Both the position numbers and the translations under genes were made by a program. A stretch of DNA of 63,786 nucleotides, the filler included, from Bigelowiella natans CCMP2755 (Eukaryota; Protista; Cercozoa): the NCBI GenBank assembly GCA_000320545.1. It is 10 parts of 10 records of this genome, joined end to end, with 100 filler letters (N's around TTAATTAATTAA, not from the genome) between each part and the next. Parts side by side here need not be neighbours in the genome. Positions count along the whole stretch, not along the records: positions 1 to 25,014 come from ADNK01001293.1; positions 25,115 to 28,447 come from ADNK01001352.1; positions 28,548 to 37,482 come from ADNK01003589.1; positions 37,583 to 45,993 come from ADNK01003576.1; positions 46,094 to 50,063 come from ADNK01001904.1; positions 50,164 to 52,417 come from ADNK01001764.1; positions 52,518 to 53,982 come from ADNK01003706.1; positions 54,083 to 55,332 come from ADNK01003725.1; 2 more parts are not named here. One strand, written 5' to 3'. The notes under the pieces are model-generated. The model did not search any database. It was not told the DNA's origin and saw nothing but the letters and a program-made list of their open reading frames with translations. Positions 1,626-63,786 of the stretch are shown here, in pieces; the stretch's first letter is position 1; every line of letters begins with the position of its first letter.

Positions 1626-4546
1626 ATGTTGGCTCTGCTCGCACTTTCTCATTTTCTGACGCCTATCCAGGCTCTGCAGAATCTAGAAAGGAGTCAAATA
1701 AAGCTCGACGGAATCAACACGGCGAAAAGTTCTGAGCCGTTGCTTCTTAACCCATCTCTCCCAGAATCCGTGCTGGGCCACCCAAAGATGCCACCCCCTT
1801 TTTTGGGTATTTCTGAGCTTTACAGTCGATCCAAGAAAGATGAGCAAGAGAGCGAACACAGAGGCGCTTACAGCTTCAACTTCGAAGGGAAAGATGGAGT
1901 TCGGCTGACACTTCAGTATGATGGTGAAATCCAGAAAGGTAATAAAATTGTTTCTCTTGACAAACTGAAAGGAATCAAGCCAGAATCCACTGTGCGAGCC
2001 AATCCTAACGGGGATGAAAGGTATGACAAATCGTATGCCGATGATGTTCAGTGGAATTCGTTGATGTGTTGTTATTTTGATTGAATATACTTGCATCTTA
2101 TATTAGGGTTGAAGTTCACTTTCAAATTCCATCTCTCGCAGCTGCCCTAGTCCAAAAACTCAATATCCGCGAGAGCGACCGTTATTCTTCTGTCTATGTC
2201 ACTGGAGGAATGCATTGGGGTAGTCAACATCCATCTTCAAAAGATCCGAGACCGTTGCTTCTTGACCTATCTCAAGCTTCTCTTAAGGATTCGCGCGTAG
2301 TTATAACCGGGAAGCCTGTACAGTATCAGCAAATCTTCAAAAATCTAAATTTAACTTTCACAACGAATGCTTTCACCCCGAAGATAAATCCCAAAACTGA
2401 TGGGAAAACCACCGCAAAATCGATGCCTAGCTCAAATTTACTACATCATTCCGAGGCCGAGGTCGACAATGCTGCTGCTACTTCAACAAATGGTCAAGGT
2501 CAATGTATATGGCAGAAAAACTGGAAGGATGCGCACGGTTATACTTGCGATAGTTGGGCAGGACATTCCTGCATCAAAAGTTGGACAAATGGTAACAGTT
2601 GGCGTTACAGCGCTGAGCAGATGCAAGACGTGAGAAATCACTGTCCCCAATGCAATGCATGTAACTATCCTGCGGGGTGCACAGACACGCCAAACTTCAA
2701 AGATGTACATGGTTATTCTTGCAAGGAATGGAATGGTTATTCTTGTGATCCCTACTCGATTTCCAACTGGCGTTATACAGAACAAAATGTTCGCGATGTT
2801 TTGAAAAACTGCAAAATAGAATGTGGGACATGCAGTGGAATGCCCAACTTTCAGCCGTCATGGTTTGAGACCATTGCAAATACTGTTGCTGGTTACGTAA
2901 AGAATGCATATCAATCTGTGGTTGGGCAAGAAATATCAAACCTTATGGAAGAAGGCAAGATTATTTGGAACATTGCAAAGCTTGCGGTGACAGGAAATCT
3001 CAATGTGGACCGTCCACATCTTCGGCACACGTGCTGGGAGTGGAACTATGACTGTTTGAAGGGCGAGTCAAAGAATGAAGTGTTCACTTTCGACACAGCT
3101 GCTCAGCTCCGATGCGAAAACTGTTACATCAAGTCTGAATTTAATCTGGCCTTCAAGGTGGATATTGCGGAATACGTATTGAAGAATCTTCTTCTTGAGG
3201 GAACTGGAGATCTTGATATGAACTTCGACGTAAAAGCTGATTTTAAAGGCAGCTACGATAAAAATTCAGATACATTGATTGCAAAGTCGCTAATTGGAGA
3301 TCAGCAGTTTTTCATTGATGTGTTGGGCATTCCCATCTATATCCAAATGAAAGTTCCTTTGAAGATAGGCTCCAGTACCCAGGTCGATTCTCAGCTCAGC
3401 ATGTATGCTAAAGCGAGGGCCAGTGGACATATTCACTCTGGATTTCAGTACTCTCAGGATAAGGGTTTATCCTTCTTTAACCCGAGTCCACAAATTCAGC
3501 ATAGTGGAAGCTTCGATGCTCAGGAATCTGTAAACTTTGCGGGTGAAGTTCACCTATTGCCTGTGGTCAGGTACTCAGTCTATTCGTTAGCTGAGCTTAA
3601 CATTGGCTTTAAGACTGGCGTCGTTTTTTCTCTCGAGAAAGCAACTGATAGACAACATCCTTGCTACAAAAGTTTTCCCAATTTAATCAACACGTATGCT
3701 TCAGCAAATGCAGCCCTCTCAATGACCGTCTCAGGGGGGCTCGATGTAAATTGGGGAATACTAAAGTACAAGAAGCTTACCAAACCTAATGTCATCTTCC
3801 ACCAAATGTACCCCATCTACCAACATTGTTGGGGGTGGTACAAGAATCAATTGTTGCTAAATGAAGACTCGCAGAAAAAGGATGTGATCCTTCAGCAATC
3901 AAAGACGAATTTCGAACCAAAAGGAATTGTACGTGGGCAAATTTATCATGGAAGTTTCCATGTCAACGAACAATGCAAAGATGATTTTATGCCTTCAGGG
4001 CAACTCACCATTTTTGTGAAATCAGTCGATTACGGGAGAAACACAACCAAATGCCCTGACAGTTCCTTGTTTATCGTTACCGCAACTGACAGCACGGAGC
4101 CCAATCATCCTAGTCCTCACGCCTGCATGAATGCGAGAGAGATTCAAGTCAAATTTGAAGAAAGGAAGGGTTCCGACAGATGCACAATGCATTTTGACTT
4201 GCCGTCTTCTTCAGAAGCAAACAAGTTCTGTACCAAAGAAGAAGAAAAGAAATCTCGTTGCAACAATTTTCCAATACTTGCTGGAAGCGCTGATTCGGAC
4301 TTCAGCACCATACGACTACATGATGAACATTTACGCGCTGATGGAGCAGACTGTGTGCGTGGGCATCTGTATCGAAAGAAGGACAAGGTGGTGAAGGATG
4401 ATCTCACCGCTCTCAATAAATTGTCTAATGAAACTGGCCATGGAACTGGTCATGTGTGCGCAGAAATTAAAAAACGAGGGTACTGTTTCGACGCTGATGT
4501 GTCAGAGTGCTGTGCTGCCACATGTGGGCTCGATGAATTTTGGTAA
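1626..4546 (+). CDS. Secreted ~944-aa protein with two tandem Cys-rich ShK-like repeats, a central beta-rich domain and a C-terminal ShK-like motif; one intron 2021-2106
   Basis: Signal-peptide-like MLALLALSHFLTPIQA; a GT..AG intron joins ORFs 1551-2084 and 2081-4546 in frame (AG|G = Arg, then VEVHF); repeats CIWQKNWKDAHGYTCDSW..CPQCNAC and CTDTPNFKDVHGYSCKEW..CKIECGTC; terminal CAEIKKRGYC..CCAATCG. Confidence 0.8.
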
Positions 4547-6044
4547 GCAATCTTTCTCAACTAGACGCCTTAGTATTTTCACCCTTGCTACGAAGTGAAA
4601 CAAATGGCGGAGTTGAATAAAATCGTAAGAGACTATGAGATGGATGTTGCTTGTCTACATCACAGACATTGCTGCATCCATGTCACATCGTCTCTATCTG
4701 CTAGCTTGTCATATTTTTGATTTTGGCGTTTGCAAGTGTTGACAACAATGGAACCTAAGTCTAACGGAACACGCAAAACCCTTTGGACTAGACTTGCTTC
4801 GCTTGATGACTAAATGGAGAACCATACATGAACTCCATTGGAGACGTAAATAAGACCAGACATGCTGCGCGCCCGCTTCAATCTAGCAATGATGAGAATT
4901 GTGCCTCACTGTACGCTGTCTCGTGCATGCCTACTTCACAAATTGTACGCATCCAATGCGCAATCGCTCAAAAAATGAGCCGGATCTAGCAGTTTTTTGT
5001 TGCTAATTGTCATGCCCAGATTTGTGCGGGGACACATGGACACAAATTGAGCTGTGCAGTCATGCGCGTAGCTAGGCTAGAGTTCAGATGAAATTTATTG
5101 AGTTTGTGCTGCATGCATGCATGCACCATGCACATGCACACACGCGCACACACACACACACACACACACACACACACATACGACACGTACTATCTAGACT
5201 ATGGACATGTACATCCTACACGTACGTGCACTATAGCATGCACAACAAGTGCAGCGATGCACATCCAGCATGAATACATGATGGATGCTAGCTAGCATGT
5301 TCTACATGCAACATGTGCATGGCAAGCAAGCAAGTCTAAATGCAAGCCAGCAAGTGAAGCGATGCAGGCCGGCATGGAGCATGCCAGAATGATGCACCCA
5401 TACACATGCAAAACAGACGCGTTTGCGCTTCGACGAATCAACAACGTTTCGCAAGAATTATGCAAATGACCGCACAGCCATCGAACCAAAAATGCGCATC
5501 ATTTTTCTTTTCCCGCCGTCAGATGGCGACTGCATTTACATGTAGTAGGCAGGGGGGGTACAAAGGTATTTTGTATGCTTTGTCACGTTAAATTTGCTAG
5601 ATGTAGTCGCCTATCACAGTGTAATGTGGAAGCACAAAAGTAAAGTTACGGCTATGTTGCATGAGCAGGCCGGGCGATCGATCCCTACTTCTGAACTGAG
5701 TTGTACTGTATAACAACAGTGTGAAGATGGATAGAAAGCCCTTCCCTTGGTCAGCAGCGCTCGAACAAAATTTCTAAAAGATTCATTTGGAATGGGTAAC
5801 TACGTACCAGAAAACTCGGATGCACATCTATCTTCAAAGTAGGAAAATTTTGCATATGGTAACACACGAAGAAATGACACACAAACCCATATAATACGGG
5901 ACGTTATGCACACACACACACACACACACACACACACACACTATACATATATATATATATATATATATATATATATATTATGTGTATATATAATTTCAAA
6001 TTTCGGGACTCGGTTGTTGGAAATCCTCACGACGGAGGAGCGCA

Positions 6045-62649: not shown

Positions 62650-63639
62650 AGAATGTGTCATTTCACCTTCAAACGGACAGTGTTGACTGGCGCAGCATGT
62701 GCATGCATCGCGCGGAAAATCATCCATTTTCGATTCACACTTGGACGCTTCGTCGGTCACACTTCGCAGAAACGATGCATGCACCCAGCAATGATCATGC
62801 TAGCATGGCACTGCCCGACCGTGAAAGAATTTGCAAGTAGCAAACGCTTGGAGTGAGTTTCAATGCATGCTGTGCCTCCATCCTGTCGAGTTGTTTGTGA
62901 CAAACAAAGGCATTCGCACATCGATTGAACAGTTGCACCGACAAACAAAGGCATTCAATTGAGCACCACCCACAAAAGTTCTGCTTGACCAAAAACACTT
63001 CTGAGCCGACTTCGATTCAAAATGATGTCCACCGTGGCATCGTCAGCAGCATTCCGAGCACCGCGTGCAACAAAATGCACGCGCAAATTGCTTTGCACGT
63101 GTGCGTGATCATTGGAGTTGATCAGGGTTGAGGTTCAAGACAAGGGTTGCGTGATGTGCAATTTGCAAACTGCATGCATGCAGGTTGGGGTTTGGGTTCT
63201 TTTCTGGACCAAGGGCGAAATGACGCTCGAAACGAGAAAGTCAGAGCAGTGAGGAAAATTGGCAGCAAAAAATCGACCAGGGTTTTTGAAGGAAAAAAAA
63301 ATCAGGACAAGTCCAGAAGTGTCGAGGCAAGTGGCAAGGGATTGCGGCACATGGCACATCATCAATGCACACAAAAAGGATGTGGAGGGTGCAAGTGATC
63401 GGTGTTTGCACGGTCATTCGATGTTGAGGGTTCAGGTGAGCGGTCAGGTGAAGATTGGGAATTGGGATCAGAGATTGCGGTCAGGGGTCAGGTTGAGGAA
63501 GTGAATTGAGGTCAGGGATCAGTCAGGGATCGGGGTCAGGGATCAGGCTCAAGGGTCACGTTGAGGGTCAGGGTCACGTTGAGGGTCAGGGTTAAGGTTA
63601 CGTTGAGGGTCAGGGTTAGGGTCACGTTGAGGATTAGGA
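62650..63639. other. Subtelomeric TpA-free zone with degenerate telomere-variant repeats
   Basis: No TA in 62840-63592; TCAGGG, TTGGGG, TGAGGG and GGGTCACGTTGAGGG units. Confidence 0.9.
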
Positions 63640-63786
63640 TTAGGGTTAGGGTTAGGGTTAGGGTTAGGGTTAGGGTTAGGGTTAGGGTTAGGGTTAGGGT
63701 TAGGGTTAGGGTTAGGGTTAGGGTTAGGGTTAGGGTTAGGGTTAGGGTTAGGGTTAGGGTTAGGGTTAGGGTTAGGCTTAGGGTTA
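63640..63786 (+). repeat. Telomere (TTAGGG)n, chromosome end
   Basis: Near-perfect tandem TTAGGG (one TTAGGC variant) to the end of the window, G-rich strand running 5'->3' outward. Confidence 0.98.

Follow-up and report, generated by a model that had tools for sequence, protein, structure and literature searches.

Why does the base composition of Bigelowiella natans DNA change just past the 3' ends of genes? The first-pass annotation of the window, by which we mean the whole analysed stretch of 63,786 nucleotides, had placed altered patches at four convergent junctions (J1-J4), behind the NHL gene and at the subtelomere, and had found divergent promoter intervals free of them. As their possible cause it proposed a base J-like thymine modification or deamination of A in TpA. 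We scored intervals set by gene ends by the number of CATG, TGCA and CTAG per kb, with microsatellites masked. It turned out that all four named convergent gaps are altered. The score was 39, 43, 55 and 48 per kb at J1-J4, and the background in 530 1-kb windows had a median of 11 and a maximum of 24. None of the four divergent intervals was altered (13, 11, 0 and 6 per kb, in the order given here).

485..1625, no strand assigned: divergent interval, unaltered
7074..8094, no strand assigned: divergent interval, unaltered
17448..17784, no strand assigned: divergent interval, unaltered
22433..22949, no strand assigned: divergent interval, unaltered

When four such intervals were placed at random, all four reached at least 39 per kb in 0 of 20,000 trials, a result that is only descriptive because the motif set and the cut-off were picked post hoc. 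An unsupervised scan returned eight domains (two abutting J2 pieces were joined), seven of them at a gene 3' end. The eighth, at 44601-45200, is weak and belongs to a GTGTGCAT-type repeat. The domains behind the NHL gene and at the subtelomere proved to be real as well, and no patch adjoins a possible plus-strand gene end at about 54795. The rule describes one window with four to five junctions, in which nine assembly gaps hide other junctions. Within it, the altered composition past gene 3' ends and at the subtelomere, unlike that of promoters and introns, is likely to represent mutational scars. A search against Rfam gave no structured RNA matches. Orthologous metagenome DNA was obtained for one locus among 211 candidate stretches; it is distantly related, 1.4 kb long, and its 3' end is ordinary.

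The 3'-end geography thus stands within the window, but the accompanying assumption that all domains are TpA-poor does not. The rho TpA values of J1-J4 are 0.78, 0.26, 0.77 and 0.98, against 0.69-0.73 in the divergent intervals, so that only one named gap in four (J2) is TpA-poor. The single signature assumed earlier had merged two. Class A comprises three domains in which TpA is erased. Class B has an excess of CATG, TGCA, CTAG and purine-pyrimidine alternation and is not TpA-poor; it occupies J1, J3 and J4, the right edge of J2 and a probable fifth gap (J5).

Hypermutation of TpA to CpA/TpG is described for integrated NCLDV and virophage DNA in B. natans (Mettrop et al., bioRxiv 10.64898/2026.01.13.699255). 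The main text of this preprint measures it in mutation-accumulation lines, proposes an ADAT2-like adenosine deaminase, ties TpA-poor clusters to foreign DNA and frames the mutator as a defence against such DNA; the choice of targets is left open there. The footprint expected from deamination of A in TpA (T>C/A>G), the second option of the first-pass annotation, matches this published process. With the preprint's 1-kb TpA thresholds, 4 of the 63 windows passed at either of the two offsets used, and these windows lie only in 10001-13000 (J2), 39001-40000 (NHL flank) and 62501-63500 (subtelomere). The class B gaps J1, J3, J4 and J5, with a rho TpA of 0.77-0.98, fall outside the thresholds. The class A domains and their neighbourhood are as follows.

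10450..13050, no strand assigned: class A domain J2, covering intergenic DNA and, in an EF-hand gene, the final introns and the 3' UTR
12293..12986, no strand assigned: one or more segments common to other genomic loci, an interspersed repeat with no Pfam match
39100..40100, no strand assigned: class A NHL-flank domain, covering the NHL 3' UTR and the gap to the 5' end of the next gene
39201..39734, plus strand: low-level RNA reads in the NHL-flank domain (run X21)
62500..63560, no strand assigned: class A subtelomeric domain, downstream of a plus-strand amino acid transporter gene
63420..63625, plus strand: degenerate telomeric repeats, mostly with TCAGG replacing TTAGG
63626..63786, plus strand: intact TTAGGG telomere tract

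In class A the rho TpA is 0.16 and the rho CpA/TpG is 1.69, and the remaining TpA is spared in CTAG. At J2, three consecutive 1-kb windows satisfy the cluster definition of the preprint. The edges of class A are gradients 0.5-1.5 kb wide (about 1.5 kb at the left edge of J2) that extend into introns and a 3' UTR of the host. The NHL stop codon is at 40091-40093; the plus-strand RNA of the NHL-flank domain, seen in the single run X21 at a depth of 0.04-3.5 (about 10 reads by estimate), converges on the NHL 3' end at about 39913. The gene to the left of the subtelomeric domain gave weak Aa_trans matches at 58951-59040 and 62022-62213. No more than three TpA occur in 62650-63592; the positions are 62649, 62801 and 62838, with the next at 63593. 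The repeat units in 63101-63625 are 13 TCAGG, 1 TTAGG and 4 TTGGG. Thus the telomere carries a TTAGG-to-TCAGG polarity, which agrees with the direction from TpA to CpA/TpG. TCAGG-type telomeric variants occur in other subtelomeres too, and therefore the support for the mutator's direction is modest. Judging from composition, class A was presumably made by the published mutator. Clustered TpA loss with gain of CpA/TpG is the feature in common. The difference is in the target, which here is a host 3' UTR and introns, intergenic DNA present in one copy, and the subtelomere, while a copia retrotransposon is skipped.

46094..50063, plus strand: pieces of a copia retrotransposon that look intact: pol end, LTR and gag-pol start

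The copia pieces have Pfam gag and integrase matches and, as an internal control, show no TpA depletion (rho TpA 0.81, rho CpA/TpG 1.01). This bears on the idea that old transposon or viral debris survives in 3'-end gaps and subtelomeres, that the mutator erased TpA there and leaked into the surroundings, and that the patches lie where they do merely because insertions are tolerated there. Several data agree with it: the graded edges look like leakage, the preprint's main text connects such clusters with foreign DNA (bioRxiv 10.64898/2026.01.13.699255), and J2 holds a multi-copy segment. The summed contig depth of 12293..12986 is 33-44 against about 20, with loose ends at 12293, 12692 and 12986, and it is possible that this repeat was the nucleation point of the J2 domain. 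An old diverged relic may lie in the class A domains. However, at 80% likeness just one copy of the NHL-flank domain is present in each of the DNA runs X3 and X7 (one unitig, flat depth), and neither run shows differences there; few TpA targets are left in class A. Translation of the class A domains in 18 read-through frames gave no significant Pfam transposon or viral match, and a subtelomeric 25-mer had no match in viral contigs. When the masked window was compared with itself, the patches had no homology to each other, and the copia element is unaltered. Class B edges coincide with poly(A) sites, and class B is left unexplained by debris. We consider this origin unlikely.

Fungal repeat-induced point mutation (RIP), whose target is CpA and which leaks into neighbouring DNA, is likewise dinucleotide-specific and forms domains with graded edges. 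RIP is C>T in duplicated DNA, whereas the domains here change in the opposite direction, gaining CpA/TpG and losing TpA, and one of them is single-copy.

The class B patches were placed against the gene ends.

4791..5469, no strand assigned: class B patch J1, from the poly(A) site of a plus-strand gene to the 3' end of the lipase transcript
13050..13420, no strand assigned: class B right edge of J2, stopping just short of the VID27 3' UTR
18645..19457, no strand assigned: class B patch J3, which stops at the poly(A) site of a minus-strand ubiquitin-conjugating-enzyme gene
31951..32930, no strand assigned: class B patch J4, flanked by an amino acid transporter gene (plus) and by a minus-strand gene whose tail is Lys-rich
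50750..51480, no strand assigned: class B patch J5, behind a plus-strand gene ending at about 50625

The J1 patch contains 66 CATG, TGCA and CTAG per kb, against 20 and 14 in the flanking UTRs. Its borders are given by poly(A) tail reads at 4790 and by a lipase RNA contig that runs down to 5470; RNA of the left gene also extends to 4907 or beyond. The J3 patch likewise has 66 per kb, against 13 per kb in the UTR of the ubiquitin-conjugating-enzyme gene, and poly(A) reads lie at 19458; the UTR of the left gene enters the patch, to at least 18682 (run X19). Thus class B lies between mapped mRNA 3' ends at two junctions, J1 and J3, where the patch borders meet the transcript ends. At J2, VID27 RNA reaches 13463. 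The right border given earlier for this junction (13797) has to be moved, since VID27 is spliced across 13662-13887 and its main stop codon is at about 13637-13639. J4, whose gene ends were taken from translation and Pfam, has a rho TpA of 0.98 and 17.8 CTAG per kb. J5, in the gap 50621-51860, is probably a fifth convergent gap, with both gene ends placed from sequence and no clean ORF in the right-hand gene. It has 23 motifs per kb overall, which is inside the background range, and 35-40 per kb at the core. This gap was absent from the first-pass list.

Could the mutator also have made class B? In class B the rho TpA is 0.85, and CATG, TGCA, CTAG and purine-pyrimidine alternation are raised. 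The share of TpA among W[YR]W was 64 of 409 in the four gaps against 146 of 504 in the divergent intervals and 20 introns (p=2e-6). CTAG made up 49 of 73 C[YR]G in class B and 15 of 54 in the controls (p=1e-5), and in the G[YR]C context no TpA loss was seen (24/126 vs 12/65). TpA loss in class B is therefore partial and context-dependent, and it follows the context order of the mutator. G/C runs number 5.2 per kb in class B, 13.5 in class A and 16.1 overall. Simulation of the mutator on local DNA gave TpA of 0.08-0.15, CpA of 1.55-1.62 and CpC of 0.70-0.77, values near class A. The same mutator-only simulations missed class B, giving an alternation of 0.47-0.50 against 0.63 and 1-4 CTAG per kb against 15. 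Transitions cannot increase purine-pyrimidine alternation. Since transitions alone cannot make class B, a second process, mutational or selective, may exist.

Class B might instead have been selected for in termination zones, or be structural there, and have nothing to do with the mutator, with only class A being mutator-made; protected palindromes and protein-binding or nucleosome-favouring DNA are the options. Class B is sharply confined between mRNA ends and its alternation is beyond the reach of transitions, both of which speak for this. About five-fold protection of CTAG in simulation gave 12-14 CTAG per kb even without the mutator. No differences from the window were found in run X1, in about 1,700 nt of class B with 56 non-CTAG TpA; about 6.5 would be expected at the preprint's rate for viral regions, if X1 were as distant from this assembly as the preprint's comparison. 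Against this, class B contains no fixed motif or spacing, its patches are not homologous, the contexts in which it has lost TpA rank as they do for the mutator, and protection-only models missed the CpC, ApA and alternation values. A purely selective or structural origin of class B appears improbable. The 23 differences listed for the marine run X19, in which a small share of words is present, are almost all in exons or UTRs; of the 10 that are A>G or T>C, 2 fall on TpA, which is uninformative.

Other sources of class B were rejected. CpG decay does not apply, since CpG is not depleted (0.87 vs 0.89), and general palindrome formation does not either, since GATC, TCGA, AATT and GGCC are not enriched. 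Decayed long microsatellites with strong slippage plus the mutator produced alternation, CATG and TGCA, but the alternation overshot (0.83-0.87) and CTAG was lost; with weak slippage the effect was too small. Long alternating runs in class B are only modestly above a first-order model, and CpA versus TpG showed no consistent strand bias. The best of eight post hoc models for class B (TA>TG, AA>AG, CC>CT and YC transversions) has four added parameters and under-predicts CATG and CTAG; several differing post hoc models fit in part. A chlorarachniophyte virus methylates TGCA, which is only a coincidence with the TGCA of class B; our literature search found no B. natans host methylome data.

On balance, we favour a TpA mutator plus a second process as the origin of the altered composition. 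The known TpA-to-CpA/TpG mutator would act at a low level, and for a long time, on the DNA that follows poly(A) sites, and would go to completion in the three class A domains, with class B representing a low dose. It would track a spreading chromatin state with graded edges and would not be confined to foreign sequence. The second process is likely to be needed for the alternation and the CTAG excess. More speculatively, read-through or antisense transcription from facing genes would recruit the mutator, and the second component would come from error-prone repair, as AA>AG changes and as transversions where two pyrimidines adjoin. Error-prone repair in somatic hypermutation proceeds by pol eta (WA>WG) and REV1 (transversions). 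The best-fitting class B model resembles it, though the likeness is a fitted one. We consider it doubtful, though possible, that read-through or antisense transcription guides the mutator and thereby keeps all gaps flanked by facing poly(A) sites under permanent hypermutation, each with an error-prone repair spectrum peculiar to it.

If the favoured explanation is true, the mutator, presumed to be antiviral, works on ordinary DNA of the host as well. A footprint in single-copy host DNA past poly(A) sites, together with a spared retrotransposon, would point to a transcription or chromatin cue. If transcription is the guide, an antiviral editing system leaves its signature at terminators across the host genome, and gaps between facing poly(A) sites offer direct access to the way in which the mutator finds its targets. 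Class B, which stays within the space between the ends of facing mRNAs, may be the trace of another process, either mutational or selective. Neither the 3'-end geography nor class B is described in the main text of the preprint; telomere, CTAG and base J are absent from that text, and 'convergent' occurs once, about evolution (bioRxiv 10.64898/2026.01.13.699255).

The other proposal, that thymines marked in the manner of base J or 5hmU, at terminators and telomeres, left a T>C footprint, is very improbable. Kinetoplastid base J (JBP1/JBP2; PMC4344527) is tied to telomeres and transcription termination regions, and the geography here resembles it in convergent regions and at the telomere. T oxidation and A deamination give an identical substitution at the self-complementary TpA, where T>C and A>G are indistinguishable, so from sequence a lesion on T is possible. 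Nevertheless, lineage, site preference and geography all disagree. J is reported from kinetoplastids and Euglena, whereas the host is a rhizarian (a chlorarachniophyte), and Bigelowiella is not named among the literature matches listed. J is a base modification with no dinucleotide consensus, and hence no TpA preference, placed in T(N)12A doublets near G-rich tracts (PMC4344527); here a substitution footprint based on TpA and palindromes lies in rhizarian DNA poor in G runs. J occurs where transcription starts as well as where it stops, and no divergent interval is altered here. As a separate observation, the closest named relatives of the lipase at J1 are from Lotharella and Partenskyella.

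With microsatellites masked, CATG, TGCA and CTAG together reach 39–55 per kb in the four named convergent gene gaps (J1, 4546/6045; J2, 11498/13797; J3, 18644/19715; J4, 31950/33110) and 0–13 per kb in four divergent intervals, against a background median of 11 and maximum of 24 per kb among 530 windows, with a score picked after inspection of the data. This bears out the first-pass annotation, which had placed altered composition at these convergent gaps and not at the divergent promoters. When a probable fifth gap (50621–51860; 23 per kb overall, its orientation read from sequence outside the RNA-checked part) is included, 5/5 convergent gaps and 0/4 divergent intervals are altered (Fisher p=0.008). 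Gene 3' ends host seven of the eight domains found by an unsupervised scan, the subtelomeric domain among them. The 3'-end geography is real within the window, and the rule is so far drawn from this one window.

Nine N-linker gaps, written N50-TTAATTAATTAA-N50 (e.g., 25015–25114), split the window and conceal several gene junctions, and a TTAGGG tract indicates that a chromosome end is included. The RNA check of the gene map covers 22.6 of 63.8 kb and backs the alternating gene orientation in 1–20000. The gene ends at J4, the fifth gap and the subtelomeric transporter are based on translation and weak Pfam hits. RNA gave the following features:

4790, plus strand: poly(A) reads
19458, minus strand: poly(A) reads
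40151 down to about 39913: last NHL exon, stop at 40091–40093 (RNA on 38400–41040)
38843–38879, minus strand: first seen exon of the gene next to NHL (RNA on 38400–41040)

The VID27 gene had been thought to end at 13797; its main stop lies near 13638 instead, because RNA is spliced across 13662–13887. A minor contig (RNA depth 9.8 vs. 138–299 for the spliced form) keeps the last VID27 intron (13634–13916), and such retention would yield an alternative C-terminus. The telomere-proximal amino acid transporter gene (57569–62300) is AT-rich and CpG-poor (rho CpG 0.25–0.5 in several windows), unlike the rest of the window. For the lipase, the nearest named relatives belong to Lotharella globosa, L. 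oceanica and Partenskyella glossopodia, which makes the organism a chlorarachniophyte, with B. natans the likely species.

The domains had also been described as TpA-poor, which holds for one of the four named gaps and fails for the other three. The TpA-erased domains, class A (10450–13050 at J2, 39100–40100 in the NHL flank and 62500–63560 in the subtelomere), have a rho TpA of 0.16 and CpA/TpG of 1.69, and CTAG accounts for most of the TpA left. Their edges are graded and reach into the EF-hand gene introns and the NHL 3' UTR. The main text of a preprint on B. natans (10.64898/2026.01.13.699255) assigns 231 of 302 nuclear mutations to two viral inserts, nearly all TpA>CpA/TpG, reports 124 TpA-poor clusters and proposes an ADAT2-like deaminase as the mutator; telomere, CTAG and base J do not occur in that main text. 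Literature searches found no other paper giving a positional rule. A simulated TpA mutator acting on local DNA with CTAG spared approximates class A, except for some purine-pyrimidine alternation (0.54) missing from the simulation. Class A is likely the footprint of this known mutator in a setting so far unreported. A lesion on T is formally possible as the source, since T>C and A>G amount to one and the same substitution at this dinucleotide. A minus-strand, exon-like acidic reading frame at 11850–12060, within a TpA-erased domain and without a Pfam match, is possibly a relic gene.

Class B comprises the patches at J1, J3, J4, the fifth gap and the right edge of J2. Here rho TpA is 0.85, CpA/TpG 1.65, GpC 1.73 and CpC 0.48, alternation is 0.63 vs. 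0.48, and CTAG, CATG and TGCA occur at 14.9, 23.3 and 18.8 per kb. At J1 and J3, class B sits between the mRNA ends (66 per kb inside vs. 13–20 per kb in three flanking UTRs). The same simulated mutator fails to approach class B. In context counts that exclude J2, TpA is reduced in W[YR]W (64/409 vs. 146/504) and DH contexts (158/965 vs. 257/935), unchanged in G[YR]C and over-represented in C[YR]G (49/73 vs. 15/54), and this pattern follows the mutator's context order. Transitions leave the purine-pyrimidine pattern unaltered; therefore, class B requires a process beyond the mutator. Strong slippage yields alternation but loses CTAG, and five-fold CTAG protection yields CTAG without alternation. 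The best of eight post hoc models (TA>TG + AA>AG + CC>CT + YC transversions) predicts too little CATG and CTAG. Across 56 non-CTAG TpA in class B, X1, a sequencing run compared with the window, showed no differences. The viral-region rate predicts about 6.5 for these sites if run and window are separated by a comparable time; on that assumption, their absence counts against current mutator activity. Class B is a signature tied to facing 3' ends that none of these models fully reproduces.

The proposal of a base J-like mark finds no support here, and base J is unlikely as the cause. According to PMC4344527, J is known from kinetoplastids and Euglena, is located in telomeric repeats and at transcription starts and stops, and occupies T(N)12A doublets that lie close to G-rich DNA and share no other consensus. 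In contrast, the host here is rhizarian, the start regions in this window show no alteration and G runs are scarce in class B.

Transposon content could explain the altered domains partly at most. J2 does include a multi-copy segment, but two DNA runs show the NHL-flank domain to be single-copy, class A domains gave no significant Pfam hits, the altered patches share no homology with one another and the copia element keeps a rho TpA of 0.81. A few plus-strand RNA reads within the NHL-flank domain (39201–39734, unannotated) face the NHL 3' end and run away from a neighbouring promoter, so this tandem gap may be convergently transcribed as well. The copia pieces at 46094–50063, flanked by two gaps, are ordered pol end, LTR, gag-pol start, which suggests tandem copies with a common LTR or scaffold misordering; the LTR is CTAG-rich (10 per kb) and TpA-rich. 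A 185-bp inverted duplication (36988–37171 and 37274–37458, 97% identity) adjoins an assembly gap. One EF-hand gene carries three related intronic hairpins (8196–8275, 10350–10425 and 11165–11282) with ends of the GGAACCCAAAA...TTTTGGGTTCC type, a MITE-like family, and a 37-bp piece of an EF-hand exon (10688–10724) is copied into the following intron (10829–10865) with 89% identity.
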